Shown: piece by piece, positions 2,448 through 37,907 of the stretch | Numbering within the stretch: position 1 is the stretch's first letter | How the letters are laid out: the number at the start of each line of letters is the position of its first letter | Sequence record: OR539218.1 | Direction: 5' to 3' (one strand) | DNA length: 64,000 bases | DNA from: Escherichia phage vB-Eco-KMB26 | The notes under the pieces: model-generated | The model's database searches: none | Told to the model about the DNA's origin: nothing | What the model saw: the letters and a program-made list of their open reading frames with translations, nothing else | Made by a program: the position numbers and the translations under genes

Positions 2448-4267
2448 TACTGGCTCATCCATTCTTTACGAAGGTCAGCATTATCTCCCATGAGCATTTC
2501 AAAAAGCTCTTTCCAGTTCTCAGGAAGTTTAACAACATCATATACTGGATTTTGAATCATCTCACGATATTCAGATTTTTCCAAAGAGCCAAGTCCTTTA
2601 ATATAACGGATGCTATGTTTAGGTAGAGCATCTTTAGCACTCTCATATTCAGCGACTGTATAAAACCATTCTTGTTTTTTACCGACCTGAGCGATGATTA
2701 CAGGAGTTTTGACAAAACGAATTCTTCCTTGCTCAAACAGTTCTGGCCAATTACTAAAAAACCCGAGCAGAGAAGGATAAATGCTTCCTAGACCATCATG
2801 GTCAGCATCAGTCATAATAGCAATATTATGATAATTCAAGTTTTCAGCTTTTTCACCGAGAACTAATCCAGTGATTGCGCAAATATCAAACAATTCTTTG
2901 TTTTTAAGCATATCAGCATATGACATACCCCAACTGTTGAGAACTTTACCGCGCAATGGATAACCACCGTGAAGTTCTTTATCACGAACATCAATAAGAT
3001 ATCCGATAGCCGAATCACCCTCAGTCAAGAAAAGAGTAGTGTCAGCATCTTTACCACAAAGATTCGCTTTGATATGTTTATGAACCTTAGCTTTAGAAGC
3101 CTTTTTAGCTGCTTTAGTTTCTGCTGCTTTTTCTGCCGCCAATTTACGAGCCAAAGCAGCTTCAATAATCGGCATTAGAATTGCTTCATTATTTAGAATA
3201 GCGCGTGAAATCTTTTTAGCATCAAGTTGAATATGACTACGAATTTCGCCAAATGGAGAAGTCAAACGCTCTTTAGTTTGAGAATCAAATCGCATGTTTT
3301 TCATATCACGAACAAACATAACGATAGTCAAACATTCTTTAACACGCGCTTTAGTTACATCAATTTTGAACTTACGTTTGATTTGTGGAATAAGGTCTTC
3401 ACAAATATCATCCATAACACAGTCAATGTGATGGCCACCATTCTTAGTGTGAATGTTATTGACGTATGTTAATTGACGAAAACCATCCGGTGAACGACCA
3501 ACCGCAATAGAACAATTTTCTTGTTCTTGAACAATAGCATGCTCATCATATTGGCGTGCATATTTCTTAAAATTGCCCTGAACCTTTTTACCATTAAAGG
3601 TAAATTGAATATCAGGATAAACTACTGCAAGTGTCTGGAGACGATCTAGTGTAATGTCAAGATAAACTTGGGACAGCTCATTAGTTTCAAATGACATAAA
3701 ATCAGGAATGAAAGTAACACGAGTTCCTTTCCATTTTCCAGGAATAGTTTCCCATGATTTATTTTCCATGCCATTTGAACAACGAACTACAATATTATTT
3801 TGACCATCACCAGTTTCACCGACAAACATCACAGAAAAAATGTTTGTCAAACTAGAACCAACACCATTCATACCGCCAGTGACGCGTTCTTTATCATCAC
3901 CGAAGTTACCACCTGCTTTTGGAATAGTCCATGCAGCAACAGGACCAGGAATTTCTTCACCGGTAGGTGTTTTAACCATCGCCTGCGGAATACCACGACC
4001 GTTATCTTCAACTGTTACTTGATTGTTTTTAATAGTAACATTAATTTTATTTGCGAATTTAAACTTAGTACGAATACCTTCATCTACTGAGTTATCGATA
4101 ATTTCATCAATAAGCTTAACAAGACCAGGTACATACTGAACACTTTCCCATTTACCAAACAGAAAGCGCTCATGCATTTCATTAGCAGAAGAGCCAATAT
4201 ACATGCCACTACGCTTTTTGATATGCTCAATATCGCTCAGAATTTTAATTTCATTCTTAATCATCAC
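2447..4267 (-). CDS. 39: DNA topoisomerase II large subunit (GyrB-like ATPase), continuous 39+60-type ORF
   Basis: 606 aa with GHKL motifs (IDEIIDNSVDE, NGRGIP) and TOPRIM region; one uninterrupted frame. Confidence 0.9.
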   Translation of the reverse strand: MMIKNEIKILSDIEHIKKRSGMYIGSSANEMHERFLFGKWESVQYVPGLVKLIDEIIDNSVDEGIRTKFKFANKINVTIKNNQVTVEDNGRGIPQAMVKTPTGEEIPGPVAAWTIPKAGGNFGDDKERVTGGMNGVGSSLTNIFSVMFVGETGDGQNNIVVRCSNGMENKSWETIPGKWKGTRVTFIPDFMSFETNELSQVYLDITLDRLQTLAVVYPDIQFTFNGKKVQGNFKKYARQYDEHAIVQEQENCSIAVGRSPDGFRQLTYVNNIHTKNGGHHIDCVMDDICEDLIPQIKRKFKIDVTKARVKECLTIVMFVRDMKNMRFDSQTKERLTSPFGEIRSHIQLDAKKISRAILNNEAILMPIIEAALARKLAAEKAAETKAAKKASKAKVHKHIKANLCGKDADTTLFLTEGDSAIGYLIDVRDKELHGGYPLRGKVLNSWGMSYADMLKNKELFDICAITGLVLGEKAENLNYHNIAIMTDADHDGLGSIYPSLLGFFSNWPELFEQGRIRFVKTPVIIAQVGKKQEWFYTVAEYESAKDALPKHSIRYIKGLGSLEKSEYREMIQNPVYDVVKLPENWKELFEMLMGDNADLRKEWMSQ

Positions 4268-4319
4268 TTATCCTCGTTTGGTTTCGGGAATATTATACTC
4301 CGGTAATCATAAAGCTAAA

Positions 4320-4331
4320 GGCCCGAAGGCC
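4320..4331 (-). terminator. UUCG-tetraloop hairpin between 39.1 and 39
   Basis: ggcc-cgaa-ggcc; T-run on the + side, so possibly bidirectional. Confidence 0.5.
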
Positions 4332-4333
4332 TT

Positions 4334-4603
4334 TTATTTAAAACGAATAGTCGAATCCTTGAAGAATAGTCCAGAACATACTGTTCCTTCTACTTTCTGC
4401 CCAGTAGGTCCAATAGCACGAAATCCAGTATGCTGGAAATCATTTTCAGAGCAACCGAACCAATTATATCCAGTGATTTCAATATTAGTAAAACCACTTG
4501 AAGACAAAACTTTGGTTGCATTATCAGCATCAGTACATCCTATTAAAGACACTGCTAATACTAATGCTGCGATAGAACGATTAATATATTTCATAATTTT
4601 CAC
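4334..4603 (-). CDS. small lipoprotein-like protein (39.1 position)
   Basis: 89 aa; N-terminal hydrophobic signal with lipobox-like LIGC; stop codon abuts a tetraloop hairpin. Confidence 0.6.
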   Translation of the reverse strand: MKIMKYINRSIAALVLAVSLIGCTDADNATKVLSSSGFTNIEITGYNWFGCSENDFQHTGFRAIGPTGQKVEGTVCSGLFFKDSTIRFK

Positions 4604-4971
4604 TTAAATTTAATGACTTGAAGAAGACTAATAACTCTCAAGCGACTTCTTTCATCTTTAACTGTAAAAGAAAGAGGGTCACCAGACTTCATAGTAATAG
4701 TGCATTCAAAATCAAAATCTTCGGGAACTTCTTCGAAGAAGTCAAATTCTTCATCATATATTAGAACATTACTCTGAAAACTGTGAAGAATTTTTCCGTC
4801 ATTTCCAGATGCTGTACTAATCATTGTAACGTTATTACCTTTCATATCTTCAACGATAAATTCGCTTGTAGATATTACAGCATTAATAGAACCATTCCTA
4901 TAAATAGCAGAAAATAGATATTTCTTTTCTTCACCTTCGCGAATGCGATATTTCTTACCGATTTTAAACAT
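4600..4971 (-). CDS. hypothetical protein (39.2 position)
   Basis: 123-aa ORF, 4-nt overlap with downstream gene, same strand. Confidence 0.5.
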   Translation of the reverse strand: MFKIGKKYRIREGEEKKYLFSAIYRNGSINAVISTSEFIVEDMKGNNVTMISTASGNDGKILHSFQSNVLIYDEEFDFFEEVPEDFDFECTITMKSGDPLSFTVKDERSRLRVISLLQVIKFK

Positions 4972-21367: not shown

Positions 21368-21730
21368 TTAAAAGAATTTAAACTTTTTCTTTGACCTTTT
21401 ATTGAATGCATCTTGCAGTTGCATTGTAATACATTTTTCTACATGAGGAGCTAACTCAGCTTTTCTTTCTTGATCAAGAACAGCAAAGTCCATTACAACC
21501 TTTCCATCAACCCAATCCAGTTTAGTTACATACACTATATGTGTAGAACCATCTTCTAGTTTAATGACAATCTCCTGGATAACATTTTCCATAGCGGATT
21601 TAATTATCTTAAGAGACTCATTAAAAAGACGTTCTTTTCTTTCTTCTTCCCCCTCCGAAGAGGGGGATTCATCGATAATTTCTAGATCTAAATCTAAATC
21701 ATCTTTATTCATTAAATTCTTCCATATCAC
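21368..21730 (-). CDS. 40: gp40-position protein
   Basis: 120-aa ORF between 41 and uvsX; positional. Confidence 0.55.
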   Translation of the reverse strand: MIWKNLMNKDDLDLDLEIIDESPSSEGEEERKERLFNESLKIIKSAMENVIQEIVIKLEDGSTHIVYVTKLDWVDGKVVMDFAVLDQERKAELAPHVEKCITMQLQDAFNKRSKKKFKFF

Positions 21731-22880
21731 TTAACTGTTCGAGGTCAGTTTCTAAATCAGCAGCTGATTTACTTTTACTTTCTGGAGATTTAAATTTTTC
21801 AACCTTTGAGTTAATCAATTCATCAACTTCAGCTTCAACAATTTCATTACTATCAATAGCACCTAACTGATAAGCACGTTTAATAGCATCTCGGAATGGT
21901 TGATGCTTAAATAAAGGACCCCAGAATGTAGTGCAGTTAGTATCTTTTGCACGCCAAGATTTTTCTTCGCGAATCATCTCGCCGGTTTCTTCATCAAGAA
22001 ATTCACGAGCATACCAACCATTTTTAGGTTTTACCACAAATCCTAATTCTAGAGCCATATCTAACAATCCAGAATAAGGATCGATACCACCGTCAAATTT
22101 AACATCAATAAAGAATTTACTTTTTTCTTTAACGGTACGAGATTTTTCTACATTTAGAACAAATTGATACCCCTGAAGATCAGAACCATCTTTAATCTGA
22201 CGCTTACCGATAATGAATACGGTATCAGCCGAATACATTACGCCTGTACCACCTGTCATCACGGTTTTACTAAACATTTCAATGGTTTCAATTGTATGGT
22301 TAACTGCAACACATGGAATATTTTTAATGCTAAAATAAGGAGTAACAATACGGAATAATGACTTCAGTGATTTAGCACGAGTCATATCTGCCACAGATTT
22401 TTCATTCAAGGCATCTTCAGTTTCTTTCTTAGAAGCCATATTACCAATTGAATCGATGAATACAATAACTTTTTCACCACGCTCAATAGTTTCAAGCTGA
22501 TTCACCATATCAATTTTCAGCTGTTCAACTGACTGGATTGGCGTATGAATTACTCGTTCTGGGTCAACTCCCATAGACTTAAGATAAGCCGGAGTGATAC
22601 CAAACTCTGAGTCATAGAACAAACAGATAGCATCAGGATACTTATTCAAATAAGCTGCTACCATTGTCAGTGACATATTAGATTTAAAATGTTTAGAAGG
22701 CCCTGCGAAAATAGTTAAACCAGACTGCATACCACCGTCCAACGCACCGCTAATTGCAATATTCAGCATTGGAATTTTAGTACGAACCACATCCTTTTCA
22801 TTAAAGAACTTGCTTTTAGTAAGCTCTGCAGTCATTTTAGAAGTGGAAGCTTTAATCAAACGGGATTTTAAATCAGACAT
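21705..22880 (-). CDS. uvsX: UvsX recombinase (RecA/Rad51 family)
   Basis: 391 aa with Walker A (GPSKHFKS) and RecA-like core; size matches T4 UvsX. Confidence 0.9.
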   Translation of the reverse strand: MSDLKSRLIKASTSKMTAELTKSKFFNEKDVVRTKIPMLNIAISGALDGGMQSGLTIFAGPSKHFKSNMSLTMVAAYLNKYPDAICLFYDSEFGITPAYLKSMGVDPERVIHTPIQSVEQLKIDMVNQLETIERGEKVIVFIDSIGNMASKKETEDALNEKSVADMTRAKSLKSLFRIVTPYFSIKNIPCVAVNHTIETIEMFSKTVMTGGTGVMYSADTVFIIGKRQIKDGSDLQGYQFVLNVEKSRTVKEKSKFFIDVKFDGGIDPYSGLLDMALELGFVVKPKNGWYAREFLDEETGEMIREEKSWRAKDTNCTTFWGPLFKHQPFRDAIKRAYQLGAIDSNEIVEAEVDELINSKVEKFKSPESKSKSAADLETDLEQLSDMEEFNE

Positions 22881-22996
22881 TATATTTTTCCATAGGCAGC
22901 ATTATATTTTACTCATGTTTATAATAAAGGGTATTGTTATACCCAGAGTTTAACTACATCATATTTAATAATGAGATAATTATATCACCTTATCAT

Positions 22997-23110
22997 TTAG
23001 CATTTACTTTTTGATTTCTTACTTTCATAAAGGTCATACAGATACAATCCAGCAAGACTAACTGCGGTAAATATTCCTAAGCCAGTAATGAATAATAAAG
23101 GTCCTAACAT
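22997..23110 (-). CDS. small single-pass membrane peptide
   Basis: 37-aa ORF not in track (MLGPLLFITGLGIFTAVSLAGLYLY...) with GAGGT Shine-Dalgarno. Confidence 0.35.
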   Translation of the reverse strand: MLGPLLFITGLGIFTAVSLAGLYLYDLYESKKSKSKC

Positions 23111-23122
23111 ATTAACCTCAAA

Positions 23123-24199
23123 TTAAGCGGTGATATCGAGAACGCGAAGAAGCTCTTCTTGCCATTCTGATTTTAAACTTTGATACTTAAATAGGGTTTG
23201 ATGTTGTATTGTAATCAATTCCCGCCTCAAGCACTCATTGGTTTTTAACTCATTTACTAAAGTTTCAAAATCATTTTTATTCTTAACGTAGAATCTAGGG
23301 TCGTCAATAATAAGATGCTCGCTATCAAACTCTTCATCGATAAGCATCACAGCATCTGATGCCATGGCCTCCCAGACTCTAATTGTGATAAAATTATCAT
23401 TGTAATCTTTATCACCAATGACTATAGTTGCTATCGCTTGGCTATTCGTGTCAATAACCAAATTTGATGCTATTTTTTGACTGAATGATGGAGCTACATT
23501 CCACGGAAATTTAGGATTTTTAAACTGTTTCTCTTTAATAGTTCCAAACATTTTAATATTTAAATTGGTATCAAAAAGAAATTCAACTATTTTAGACTCT
23601 CGTTGCCCACCTCTAAACGCGCCGCAGTACACAACGTCATATTTTTTAATAGTTTGATTCGCAGGTTTAAGTTTCTGTGAATGAATAAAATATCTATCTA
23701 CAGGAAAGTAATCATACTCAAATTCTTTACCGTATCTTTCGGTTGTTTTCTTATGAGCCTTTTTAGCAATTTCTAGATTTCTGCCCTGAGATATTACTTT
23801 AAAGTCAGATGACACAAATAAGTCTTCATCTTTGTATTCACTTGAAAATTTCTTTCTGCGAACTACCGGAAGAACTTGCATAAATCCAAGACGGCCATCA
23901 GTAAAAATATAATAAATTTTACTTCTATATTCAGCCATCAATTTATATGAATTTAAAACGATTGGATTTTTCTTTCCACCGAAGAAATTGATAGCGCCAT
24001 TAATTACTATTAGTCTATCGTATGAATTTATATCAGTTACTACATCAAATGATATAGTGTATTCAGTATTTCGCATTGAAATTATATCAACGGAATGCCC
24101 TAATTCAGTTAAAGACCTGCCTATTAAAATAGTTTCGGCTGATGATACTATTTTAAAATCACTCACAGTATTACTTAAATTTAGAATAGCTATTTTCAT
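23123..24199 (-). CDS. HMC-DNA glucosyltransferase, beta-gt family (diverged from T4 beta-gt)
   Basis: 358 aa collinear with recalled T4 beta-gt (MKIAI...DRLIV...NFFGG...GQRESK...ITLRVWE...ASDAVMLIDEEFD), roughly half identical by eye. Confidence 0.7.
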   Translation of the reverse strand: MKIAILNLSNTVSDFKIVSSAETILIGRSLTELGHSVDIISMRNTEYTISFDVVTDINSYDRLIVINGAINFFGGKKNPIVLNSYKLMAEYRSKIYYIFTDGRLGFMQVLPVVRRKKFSSEYKDEDLFVSSDFKVISQGRNLEIAKKAHKKTTERYGKEFEYDYFPVDRYFIHSQKLKPANQTIKKYDVVYCGAFRGGQRESKIVEFLFDTNLNIKMFGTIKEKQFKNPKFPWNVAPSFSQKIASNLVIDTNSQAIATIVIGDKDYNDNFITIRVWEAMASDAVMLIDEEFDSEHLIIDDPRFYVKNKNDFETLVNELKTNECLRRELITIQHQTLFKYQSLKSEWQEELLRVLDITA

Positions 24200-25053
24200 G
24201 ATATTTCCGTAACTTCAACTTTGTGAATAGCATTAAACTTATGAAATGCTTCTGATTTTTCTTTACGCGAAACGCACATGCGAAGAACCTTTAATGGCTC
24301 GTCTTCTTCACCCAACGATTTTCGTTTTTCAATATTAGAAGTTTTCCAACGAGCTTGCTCTGGAAACTCTCTATTGATTTGCTCAAGCGCTCTATTATGT
24401 TTAGAATTACTACGAATTGAACTACACCCGCCAGGAGCTTGTGCTTTTCCAGATACAACTAGATATTTGAACAAGGCCAAATGCGGATAACCTTGATTAA
24501 TTAAATTGAGAAATGCATACATATCTTCGCATAAATCAATTTTTCCATACCCAATTTGTTCTGTCGTAAGTTTTCCGAGGTCATACCATGTATTCGTGAA
24601 TCCATATGAATTTTCACGATAATTACCCCAAGATGAAGTAATTTTAAAAATTGGTAGACGAGCATGACCGTGATAATACCCGCAATCCATGGCATCTTCA
24701 ACATATTGAATCAATTCATAGAACTGTTCACGAGTTAATTGATTAATTTTATCTACGCGCCGTTTATCGTCTCTCTTTCGTATTGAACTCATACGGATAG
24801 TAGTATCATCGTCAATCATCCAGATTCGTTGACCTGCATACATATCAGTAATTGCTTTACGAGTACCGGCAATTCCATTAACATCATCAGGAATAGTTAC
24901 AATTTTAGCTCTAGACCCATAGGCATCATAATAAGCTTTTTCTTCGTGTTCACGCACTATAATATGCGGTTCATAATCAGTCGGAAACATATCAAGGGCA
25001 GAAACTGCCCCGACACGTTGATAACTTGGAATTACGAATTGAATCATTTCCAC
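24196..25053 (-). CDS. second glycosyltransferase, GT-A-like
   Basis: 285 aa with N-terminal VIPSYQR and DxD-type WMIDDD motif; lies between the beta-gt homologue and gene 42. Confidence 0.55.
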   Translation of the reverse strand: MEMIQFVIPSYQRVGAVSALDMFPTDYEPHIIVREHEEKAYYDAYGSRAKIVTIPDDVNGIAGTRKAITDMYAGQRIWMIDDDTTIRMSSIRKRDDKRRVDKINQLTREQFYELIQYVEDAMDCGYYHGHARLPIFKITSSWGNYRENSYGFTNTWYDLGKLTTEQIGYGKIDLCEDMYAFLNLINQGYPHLALFKYLVVSGKAQAPGGCSSIRSNSKHNRALEQINREFPEQARWKTSNIEKRKSLGEEDEPLKVLRMCVSRKEKSEAFHKFNAIHKVEVTEIS

Positions 25054-25784
25054 TCACCTTTATAGTCTTTTTTCACAATATGAGTTTCGCCAGTATTCCA
25101 CCAATGATCAACCAAATAAAAATGACGAGAATATACATGAAGACTTCCAACATTCCATATAATAGAACCTGCTTTATACTGACGAGTTGAATCGCCTGCA
25201 TTCAAATCAGATACTAATTTATCTAATACGTATTTTTGCCATGCATAATCATTACGGAATCCGAAGACCACGTCATTTGAGCGCATGCTTACTACCGCAT
25301 TGACTTTCTTATCACGAATCAAGTACTGTACTGTATTAGTACACATGAAATCTGACATACCATCTTTATTGTAGTCAAACTGCATAGATGGACGAGTATA
25401 AATCATGATACCACGTCGAGAATCAGGATTTTGACCAAGTTCAGCTAAACACATATCATACTGGGCATAGTTATCTTCTGACCAAATAGCCCAACCATAA
25501 TTCGAGTTAATTTCGCCTTTAGAAGATGCTACCTGCTGCCAAATCTTTGGTGTTTCACCTGGAATATCTTTAACAAACAAACTCTTAGATTTATACCATT
25601 CAAGTTCACGCTGAATGTATTCATCATTAAGAGCGCCAAAAATAAACGGTTCATCTGCTACAAATGATGCGCCAATAATTTCAATAGTTTTAACACCAGT
25701 TTTATCAACTACGAAATCTTTTTCTTTTAATGCAAGCCCCAAATGAAGACGGATTTCTTCAACTGTCATAGAGTCACTAATCAT
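25044..25784 (-). CDS. 42: dCMP hydroxymethylase gp42
   Basis: 246 aa, thymidylate-synthase-like fold; size matches T4 gp42. Confidence 0.9.
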   Translation of the reverse strand: MISDSMTVEEIRLHLGLALKEKDFVVDKTGVKTIEIIGASFVADEPFIFGALNDEYIQRELEWYKSKSLFVKDIPGETPKIWQQVASSKGEINSNYGWAIWSEDNYAQYDMCLAELGQNPDSRRGIMIYTRPSMQFDYNKDGMSDFMCTNTVQYLIRDKKVNAVVSMRSNDVVFGFRNDYAWQKYVLDKLVSDLNAGDSTRQYKAGSIIWNVGSLHVYSRHFYLVDHWWNTGETHIVKKDYKGEWK

Positions 25785-36689: not shown

Positions 36690-36705
36690 AAGGGCCGAAG
36701 CCCTT
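36690..36705 (-). terminator. UUCG-tetraloop hairpin 3' of a-gt
   Basis: aagggc-cgaa-gccctt adjoining the a-gt stop. Confidence 0.6.
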
Positions 36706-37907
36706 TATTTTGTAATAATGTCAAACTGTTCTTTAAAGCAGAAGCTTGAATCTTGATGCTGATACAAAAATTCATATGCTTTTTCTCGCTCACGGTCATA
36801 AAGAGCTCGGTCAGATGACAGTTCTTTAATACGTTCAAACGTTGATTCCATATCATTTTCATCAAACCAAATGATACCGCTATCATGCGAGGTCAAAGGA
36901 GTATTATCAACACGGAATTTTAAATTTTCGCCAGTAGATTTCCAAAATACCGGAATTGTTCCACATGCACCAAGCTCGAGATGAGTATATTCTAAAGAAC
37001 GTTGCAGATATTTTTTATCCAACTTACTCAACTGATAACCAAATCCGGATTTACTCATGCGTTCAAGCATTTCGCTATTTACATAACGGTCAAGAATTTG
37101 CGTTGGCAAATTAGGAGCAATTTTAATTTGGTCTACTTGATGAAGACGATAATACTCGTATGGAATTCCTTTTTCTTTAATAGGAATGAACGCTGGAGAA
37201 CGTTCCAGACCTTCCATAATAGTACTTAGTCCTGCAGGTTTAAGATGTTTTTCATGAAAATCAAACATCTGATAAAAACCTTTCCATGTAGTCGTACGAC
37301 CAATCCAACGGTTGATATTCATGTTAATTTCAGAAACATCTTTCCAGTAGGTTGACCGAACCTTCGCAATATCCATAGGAGGCTGAAAGTTATATACTGT
37401 CGGTGCTTCTTCAATATCATCAAACAGAGAAACAGTTTCTGGATACCATTCTTTCATCAGAACTTTATTAAAATCACCATTATCAGAATGACTAAAAATA
37501 ACATCAGCTCGACGAACAGTTTCTTCTAATCCCAAATTTCGACGCAAAGAAAGAGAAGAATGGTCATGTTGATAAACTACAACACGAACAGAAGGTTTAA
37601 TGTTATCAATAATTTTTTTATAGTTATTAATAGTGTCTTCTTCAACCGAAGTAGCAGGAACTGAATTGATAATTAGAATATCACAATCATTTACCAGCTT
37701 AAGTGTTTTATCATATTCTTTTGCCAATAAAACCGGAATTGAAAATGATTTATAATCATGCGCGCAATTACGAGTAAATGATTTATCTTTAGCATAAACC
37801 AAAGTTACTTCATGACCATTTTTAATAAACCAATCACGTTGCTCGAGTGAGAATTTTGTTACACCACAACCTTCAAGACCTCGAGCCATAAAAATACATA
37901 CTTTCAT
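36705..37907 (-). CDS. a-gt: HMC-DNA alpha-glucosyltransferase
   Basis: 400 aa; sequence matches my memory of T4 alpha-gt. Confidence 0.85.
   Translation of the reverse strand: MKVCIFMARGLEGCGVTKFSLEQRDWFIKNGHEVTLVYAKDKSFTRNCAHDYKSFSIPVLLAKEYDKTLKLVNDCDILIINSVPATSVEEDTINNYKKIIDNIKPSVRVVVYQHDHSSLSLRRNLGLEETVRRADVIFSHSDNGDFNKVLMKEWYPETVSLFDDIEEAPTVYNFQPPMDIAKVRSTYWKDVSEINMNINRWIGRTTTWKGFYQMFDFHEKHLKPAGLSTIMEGLERSPAFIPIKEKGIPYEYYRLHQVDQIKIAPNLPTQILDRYVNSEMLERMSKSGFGYQLSKLDKKYLQRSLEYTHLELGACGTIPVFWKSTGENLKFRVDNTPLTSHDSGIIWFDENDMESTFERIKELSSDRALYDREREKAYEFLYQHQDSSFCFKEQFDIITK

Follow-up and report, generated by a model that had tools for sequence, protein, structure and literature searches.

The window analysed here is a 64,000-nucleotide stretch of Escherichia phage vB-Eco-KMB26 (OR539218.1), a Tequatrovirus. 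Our subject is its locus for glycosylation of hydroxymethylcytosine (hmC), where the minus strand carries two glycosyltransferase genes, TAGT and b-gt', in the interval from gene 42 to uvsX. The locus is that of Tequatrovirus and holds both of the alternative modules known there; its rare element is the diverged b-gt', which is co-resident with TAGT and with the alpha-gt encoded elsewhere in the window. Over the 2.9 kb surrounding both transferase genes, Escherichia phage vB_EcoM-CHD2BS1 and nine related records match the window at 100% identity. Gene 42, the transferase genes and their motifs are as follows (aa, amino acids).

25044 to 25784, minus strand: gene 42, dCMP hydroxymethylase, 246 aa (PF00303 at 1.1e-15; 96% nucleotide identity to T4 gene 42).
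24196 to 25047, minus strand: TAGT (ba-gt, ggt), 283 aa, a T2/T6-type beta-glucosyl-HMC-alpha-glucosyltransferase.
24805 to 24813, minus strand: DDD (DxD) metal / nucleotide-sugar motif of TAGT inside WMIDDD, located by translation; D79, D80 and D81 are invariant.
23123 to 24199, minus strand: b-gt', 358 aa, GT-B type, diverged within the T4 DNA beta-glucosyltransferase family (PF09198, PDB 1bgt).
23897 to 23899, minus strand: codon of b-gt' Asp101 (equivalent to T4 BGT Asp100) in the context FTDGRL, from pairwise alignment and translation.
23642 to 23647, minus strand: A6 tract 1 in b-gt', gene positions 553-558, codons 185-186, with +1 and -1 alleles.
23473 to 23478, minus strand: A6 tract 2 in b-gt', gene positions 722-727, with the +1 allele of vB_EcoM_G2540.
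36705 to 37907, minus strand: alpha-gt, 400 aa (PDB 1xv5, PHROG 2888).

Transcription runs in the order 42 > TAGT > b-gt'. Gene 42, whose hmC is decorated by all three transferases, is the first of this overlapping string, in which ATGA overlaps join the gene 42 stop to the TAGT ATG and the TAGT stop to the b-gt' ATG. This suggests coupled expression of 42, TAGT and b-gt'. The initial annotation had described two glycosyltransferases side by side, flanked by uvsX and gene 42, with an alpha-gt at a distance, and this description is borne out: both open reading frames (ORFs) lie on the minus strand where it had placed them, with matches to PF09198 and PF20691 well outside what chance would give, and alpha-gt is intact (E = 5.6e-258 to PDB 1xv5, PHROG 2888 at 6.8e-223). 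It had also listed a beta-gt homologue followed by a GT-A-like enzyme; the two are indeed adjacent, but it is the GT-A enzyme that is transcribed first. No gene for sugar-nucleotide biosynthesis or sugar modification was seen among the locus neighbours uvsX, 42, imm and 43.

Alignment identifies TAGT as a plain orthologue of the ordinary T2/T6 enzyme and not as the novel extra transferase that had been supposed. It shares 95.7% amino-acid identity with the T2 enzyme and 95% with that of T6, is carried at 90% identity or more by 472 phage records and is the standard occupant of the 42-uvsX locus in most Tequatrovirus genomes. The protein matches Pfam PF20691 (39.2 bits against a cutoff of 27.5) and belongs to PHROG 842 ('beta-glucosyl-HMC-alpha-glucosyltransferase') at 2.3e-88. 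GenBank records start it at the ATG at 25047, giving 283 aa in agreement with the homologue N-termini (MIQFVIPSYQR); a GTG at 25053 yields the mechanical 285-aa ORF (24196-25053) under which it was first reported. The recognition of a GT-A-like enzyme with a DxD motif was sound, as the DDD is invariant in a 10-sequence alignment and the fold is predicted to be GT-A-like, of the nucleotide-diphospho-sugar transferase type. An AlphaFold 3 (AF3) model of T6 TAGT independently reaches a GT-A-type fold (PMC13216743); no solved structure related to TAGT by sequence was found. The C-terminus of the window protein ends in eight residues (KVEVTEIS) in place of the five (PIAVD) of T6-type phages, since the extra segment that carries b-gt' begins 28 nucleotides (nt) before the TAGT stop.

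Gentiobiosyl-hmC, the product of the T2/T6 system, has been known since the 1960s. Removal of ba-gt from T6 leaves solely alpha-glucosyl-hmC (PMC11078745, PMC13160076), and T6-like Durham phages with alpha-GT and TAGT gave gentiobiosyl-hmC by liquid chromatography-mass spectrometry (LC-MS; PMC13390438). From this deletion and from the LC-MS of phages with the same gene pair, the product of the window TAGT is predicted to be beta-1,6-glucosyl-alpha-glucosyl-hmC (gentiobiosyl-hmC); the alpha-gt that would supply its acceptor is encoded in the same genome.

Two irregular copies of TAGT were noticed. The T6 record MH550421 has an in-frame TAG at codon 10 of TAGT/ggt (about 4947-4949), and its CDS (4138-4923) is annotated from Met20, a start that would drop the conserved N-terminal IPSYQR strand, although T6 is the classic gentiobiosyl-rich phage. 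This TAG could reflect strain variation, sequencing error, or suppression or re-initiation. In contig L005 (1583-2435), the sole contig with P0001, the cluster-representative protein of one of two b-gt' haplotypes (haplotype B), TAGT is split by one additional A (A4 to A5) at gene position 402, with b-gt' intact. If the split is real, L005 would effectively have a T4-like alpha-plus-beta configuration.

The second transferase, b-gt', is by its sequence matches a clear member of the T4 beta-glucosyltransferase family, within which it forms a separate lineage. It matches Pfam PF09198 (T4 beta-glucosyltransferase) at 2e-61 (207 bits, cutoff 27) and PHROG 7922 at 7.5e-138, and its residues 1-355 align to residues 1-350 of the T4 BGT structure 1bgt (E = 7.5e-124). 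Identity to T4 b-gt is 55% in protein and 65% in DNA, while at the DNA level the flanks reach 85% (uvsX) and 96% (gene 42). Among 5.8 billion proteins searched, no relative fell between 96% identity, within its own cluster, and the 55% of T4. A neighbour-joining tree places b-gt' as the long-branched sister of the clade that contains T4 b-gt.

All residues conserved in at least 90% of 91 family members (in T4 numbering D100, R191, R195, R269, E272, N70, G73, G74, Y186 and G188) are present in b-gt', which also retains Y261 and, in the alignment with T4 BGT, Glu22. The first five of these are conserved in 88-91 of the 91 members, and position 100 is Asp in 90. We take b-gt' Asp101 to be the catalytic base, as the structural literature on the T4 BGT D100A variant has it for Asp100, and the equivalents of Arg191, Arg195, Arg269 and Glu272 presumably bind UDP as in crystal structures of T4 BGT. 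The PDB contains the T4 BGT variant chains 1nzd and 1nzf. With the conserved residues retained, b-gt' is probably active, and it is predicted to beta-glucosylate hmC of duplex DNA with UDP-glucose as the donor.

The gene stands in a discrete insertion, listed here with its small ORF and the flanking gene (bp, base pairs).

22916 to 24223, no strand assigned: 1,308-bp extra segment comprising b-gt', a small ORF and downstream non-coding DNA, delimited by blastn against e11/2.
22997 to 23110, minus strand: 37-aa hydrophobic ORF MLGPLLFITGLGIFTAVSLAGLYLYDLYESKKSKSKC, annotated hypothetical in MZ234027.
21705 to 22880, minus strand: uvsX, flanking the transferase pair.

Homology to the T6-type phage e11/2 ends at 22915, 35 nt upstream of uvsX, and restarts at 24224 within the end of TAGT, so that the segment stands where T6-type phages have 61 bp linking TAGT to uvsX and the last TAGT codons are rewritten. 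The segment is present in 11 of 551 matching phage records, and at least 23 further contigs, taken from public assemblies and metagenomes and representing many independent samples, encode the exact b-gt' protein. On the b-gt' contigs the order is always 42-TAGT-b-gt'-uvsX. Isolates carrying the gene come from German wastewater and manure and from Poland (sources include PMC8614997). The arrangement is a natural, stable, minor lineage feature. An artefact of laboratory phage breeding was considered, many of the MZ2340xx records being bred progeny, and was rejected because PMC8614997 gives wastewater as the source of CHD2BS1, CHD16UKE1 and G3G7, G2540 and UPWr_E2 were isolated independently and the gene recurs on the other contigs.

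The 37-aa ORF travels with b-gt. Homologues follow T4-type b-gt, with 24 aa in T4 (unannotated) and 37 aa in Pu-Krd-SF5, and the length varies with a T-run in T4-type phages; haplotype B of b-gt' has ATA in place of its start codon. The ORF has no PHROG match and may encode a small membrane protein or be no gene at all. By eye, the non-coding DNA downstream in the segment also resembles that of T4-type b-gt modules. Together, b-gt and the small ORF have the appearance of an exchangeable cassette at a recombination hotspot, as these comparisons suggest together with the TAGT remnant of T4 and the homing endonuclease genes described below.

Constraint on b-gt' looks loose, and this distinctive pattern is new. 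The two haplotypes are about 96% identical, and seven distinct full-length variants are found. The ratio of non-synonymous to synonymous substitution rates (dN/dS) between haplotypes comes to 0.67, with 16 changes of the former kind and 6 of the latter. On the same contigs gene 42 has a ratio of 0.058 and uvsX one of 0.024 (Fisher p = 4e-6); for T4-type b-gt it is 0.14-0.21. Three independent frameshift alleles occur, and simulated +1 and -1 changes place all of them within the two A6 tracts. These can be summarised as (i) a single extra base in tract 2 (23473-23478) of vB_EcoM_G2540, seen in the DNA alignment, for which simulation reproduces the 249-aa P0041; (ii) a +1 change in tract 1 (23642-23647) that by simulation gives P0046 (187 aa, ending in IKKI); (iii) a -1 change in tract 1 on haplotype B, corresponding to P0038/P0037, for which simulation yields the frameshifted reading ...IKNMTLCTAARLEVGNESLK of P0038. 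P0038 is 212 aa long because the haplotype B sequence differs downstream. The +1 and -1 alleles of tract 1 thus occur in different haplotypes. By the contig counts listed per variant, full-length variants are found on about 48 contigs and disrupted ones on about 5, a ratio of about 10:1.

A homopolymer repeat inside an ORF, with both +1 and -1 alleles, is the sequence criterion for a contingency locus, and b-gt' presents this combination. The A6 tracts may therefore constitute a phase-variable switch. The agt of T2 offers the comparison: it too has an A-tract in a glucosyltransferase ORF with natural +1/-1 alleles confined to tracts, and contingency-locus behaviour of its A9 tract has been shown by experiment (preprint 10.1101/2025.10.21.683753). 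The tracts of b-gt', in contrast, are only A6 and are known from sequences alone, where sequencing error is possible. The alpha-gt of the window has an A7 tract at 37613-37619 (gene positions 289-295), at the same place as the A9 tract (288-296) of T2 agt.

Among known systems, the window TAGT shares with T2/T6 ba-gt the position directly downstream of gene 42, the ATGA overlap, the DDD motif, the GT-A-type fold and the co-occurrence of alpha-gt, and differs in that the next gene is b-gt', where T6-type phages have uvsX. With T4 b-gt, b-gt' shares a full-length alignment, the GT-B type, Asp100, R191, R195, R269 and E272, the 42-uvsX position, and a homologous small hydrophobic ORF and related non-coding DNA downstream. 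It differs in coexisting with TAGT, whose place b-gt occupies in T4, and in carrying G187C, W109L and W117F, with N11T, T17I and S189A in addition in the window allele. Some T4-like phages have the order 42-b-gt-uvsX without TAGT. The same 42-TAGT-b-gt order, with the same two families, is found in the CC31-, Merlin- and S16-type T4-like phages of Enterobacter, Citrobacter and Salmonella, but with an identity of only 44% (b-gt) and 65% (TAGT) to the proteins of the window, which has alpha-gt together with a T6-type TAGT. Phages with b-GT and TAGT but without alpha-GT have been reported at survey level (PMC8056088, PMC13216743), and their TAGT must therefore act on something other than alpha-glucosyl-hmC.

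PMC8056088 names one three-transferase phage, vB_EcoM_G2540, with an extra segment 99.8% identical to that of the window and the same gene order; its b-gt' is split into 249 + 80 aa by the +1 change in tract 2, while the window copy is intact. Co-occurrence of the three transferases was noted for this phage in one sentence in 2021 (PMC8056088), and a 2026 survey found all three types in 1 of 753 phages (PMC13216743). What is new is that the G2540 copy is frameshifted, whereas intact b-gt' circulates in at least 10 sequenced phages and many metagenomes, where it has been overlooked because it is annotated as hypothetical. Recent surveys undercount the three-transferase combination, b-gt' being annotated hypothetical or frameshifted. 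The phage 236Ecol005PP was considered as the three-transferase phage of PMC13216743 and rejected, as it has only a frameshifted T4-type b-gt and no TAGT. In its record (L014, 2351-3405) this b-gt is split into two ORFs and misannotated as beta-glucosyl-HMC-alpha-glucosyltransferase, and the b-gt genes of RB55 and RB59 bear the same wrong product name. Counts of transferase types based on annotation are therefore unreliable.

The 42-uvsX interval retains traces of its history. In T4 (NC_000866, L003) a 25-nt copy of the 3' end of T6-type TAGT with its stop (TTCATCGAATAGCAGTTGATTAATG) lies at about 1739-1763, between the b-gt module and segA (24 of 25 identical, E = 3.8e-7 in a local search). 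The 5' edge of this remnant is the point at which the window (24196-24224 region) departs from T6-type TAGT, via a TTCA microhomology, and T4-type phages without segA keep only its first 13 nt. The remnant suggests that the T4 lineage formerly had TAGT or acquired its end by co-conversion with segA. Some relatives, L009 (4515-5156) and L011 (1818-2459), have the gene for a 213-aa homing endonuclease (phrog_314 at 1.8e-31, with a weak NUMOD3 match) inserted between 42 and TAGT. With segA in T4 and the phrog_314 gene in these relatives, the interval is a homing-endonuclease hotspot. Simple retention of an ancestral 42-TAGT-b-gt order, with losses in T4 and T6, is not a clean fit, because T4 holds the TAGT 3' remnant downstream of its b-gt module and because b-gt' is far more diverged from T4 b-gt than are the flanks. 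Cassette exchange at the hotspot would be a better fit to the sequences.

We propose, and consider probable, that T2/T6-type TAGT, b-gt' and alpha-gt together provide all three T-even glucosyltransferase types, giving DNA with three glycoforms in which b-gt' has an accessory role. By homology, gene 42 would make hydroxymethyl-dCMP. The alpha-gt would add alpha-glucose to about three quarters of hmC, and TAGT, about 95% identical to the genetically validated T2/T6 enzyme, would attach a second glucose in beta-1,6 linkage to give gentiobiosyl-hmC at some or most of the alpha-glucosyl sites. Since b-gt' belongs to the family and retains its catalytic residues, it would be expected to use UDP-glucose to beta-glucosylate the hmC out of reach of alpha-gt, as T4 b-gt does. 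The DNA would then contain alpha-glucosyl-, gentiobiosyl- and beta-glucosyl-hmC and essentially no naked hmC. The sugar pattern unlike that of T4 that the initial annotation foresaw is upheld as regards a disaccharide, the expected product; nothing speaks for its other suggestion, a different sugar, or for an RB69-type arabinosyltransferase.

The likely benefit would be a combination of T6-type and T4-type protection. T2, T6, and T4 lacking b-gt have about 25% naked hmC, which is attacked by the glycosylase Brig3, and b-GT fills those sites (PMC13160076). Gentiobiosyl-hmC is not deglucosylated by BapA (PMC13160076), and Brig1 acts on alpha-glucosyl-hmC, gentiobiosyl-rich T6 DNA not being degraded in vitro (PMC11078745). 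A second transferase, b-gt, serves as a backup against Brig1 and as an escape route upon loss of alpha-gt (PMC13216743). In the three-transferase lineage, gentiobiose would be expected to resist the BapA deglucosylase and, in vitro, Brig1; filling of naked hmC would remove the target of Brig3 and McrBC-type systems; and b-gt' could provide fallback glucosylation when alpha-gt is lost to escape alpha-glucosyl-specific defences.

Several points weigh against this proposal. Of 36 positions at which 23 closer homologues do not vary, the window b-gt' differs at 6 (N11T, T17I, W109L, W117F, G187C and S189A); G187C, W109L and T17I are rare or absent among the commonest residues of the 91 wider family members, and G187 and S189 lie in the GGSFR loop, which we take to contact the UDP phosphates as in T4 BGT structures. 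The high dN/dS and repeated frameshifts would also fit a decaying gene, and the frameshift alleles could be homopolymer sequencing or assembly errors. Literature searches yielded no biochemical or nucleoside data for phages with the 42-TAGT-b-gt' arrangement. The share of gentiobiosyl over mono-glucosyl hmC, whether T2-like (5%) or T6-like (72%), is not predictable from sequence.

One alternative is that b-gt' in the window haplotype is inactive or strongly impaired, redundant and decaying, the DNA being simply T2/T6-like. In its favour are the dN/dS of 0.67; the changes N11T, T17I and S189A, which the window allele has beyond haplotype B at positions invariant in close homologues; G187C in the conserved GGSFR loop, position 187 being Gly in 80 of 91 members; the frameshifted alleles of G2540 and two other lineages; and the fact that T6-type phages manage without b-gt'. 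Yet the ORF is intact, full-length variants greatly outnumber disrupted ones, the ATGA coupling to TAGT is preserved and every residue conserved at 90% or more is kept, among them the catalytic Asp and the Arg and Glu residues that bind UDP. In the wider alignment three of the six changes (N11T, W117F and S189A) are tolerated in other members, and this, with the retention of all near-universal residues, lowered our estimate for inactivity; we regard it as unlikely, though of real weight. The evidence on constraint is better read, as far as sequences allow, as that of an enzyme that is active yet accessory, on which selection is weak or fluctuating and which A6 slippage may readily turn off.

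A less likely alternative still is a b-gt' with a shifted acceptor (glucosylated hmC) or donor sugar, or a TAGT that also extends beta-glucosyl-hmC, as TAGT presumably does in genera where b-gt is its sole partner; either would give an undescribed glycoform. The long branch of b-gt' and its rare substitutions in N-domain loops (T17I, W109L) and the donor loop (G187C) are compatible with altered specificity, but the residues with which it binds the donor match those of an enzyme that uses UDP-glucose, genes for sugar-nucleotide biosynthesis were not seen beside the locus and relaxed selection explains the raised dN/dS equally well. In favour of an extension of beta-glucosyl-hmC, CC31-, Merlin- and S16-type phages normally have the order 42-TAGT-b-gt, and the surveys that report b-GT with TAGT in phages without alpha-GT call the role of TAGT there unclear (PMC8056088, PMC13216743); against it, the T2/T6 enzyme, with which the window TAGT shares about 95% identity, is alpha-glucosyl-specific. 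An undescribed set of hmC glycoforms (for example beta-linked diglucosyl-hmC, from TAGT extending the b-gt' product, or products of an altered b-gt' acceptor or donor) combined with a phase switch by A6 slippage in b-gt' is improbable to much the same degree. With such a switch a population could toggle between T6-like and fully glycosylated DNA against defences that read the glycoform. That the mechanically called 285-aa enzyme is an additional non-T-even transferase adding another sugar, such as RB69-type arabinose, is effectively refuted: its one support is that the protein is a GT-A/DxD enzyme that T4 itself lacks, whereas T2, T6 and hundreds of Tequatrovirus genomes have a ba-gt 95-98% identical to it, Pfam and PHROG both assign it to TAGT/ba-gt, and LC-MS of the T6-like Durham phages with alpha-GT and TAGT gave gentiobiosyl-hmC (PMC13390438). 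An RB69-type arabinosyltransferase is excluded indirectly, by the high scores of both ORFs in glucosyltransferase families and by the lack of sugar-modifying genes among the neighbours, no direct comparison with RB69 proteins having been made.

The proposal of three transferases acting together bears on how phages of this group meet host defences. Anti-phage systems that read hmC sugars include McrBC, GmrSD/BrxU, TgvAB and the glycosylases Brig1 and Brig3 with the deglucosylase BapA. T4-type DNA (alpha- and beta-glucose, no naked hmC) and T6-type DNA (gentiobiose and 25% naked hmC) each have a known weak spot, and the three-transferase lineage is predicted to unite the protections of both. Isolates exist (CHD2BS1, CHD16UKE1, G3G7 and UPWr_E2), some of which come from studies on the breeding of phages for therapy and on phage cocktails. 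If true, the finding would refine a known system of DNA glycosylation in these phages and would not reveal a new one.

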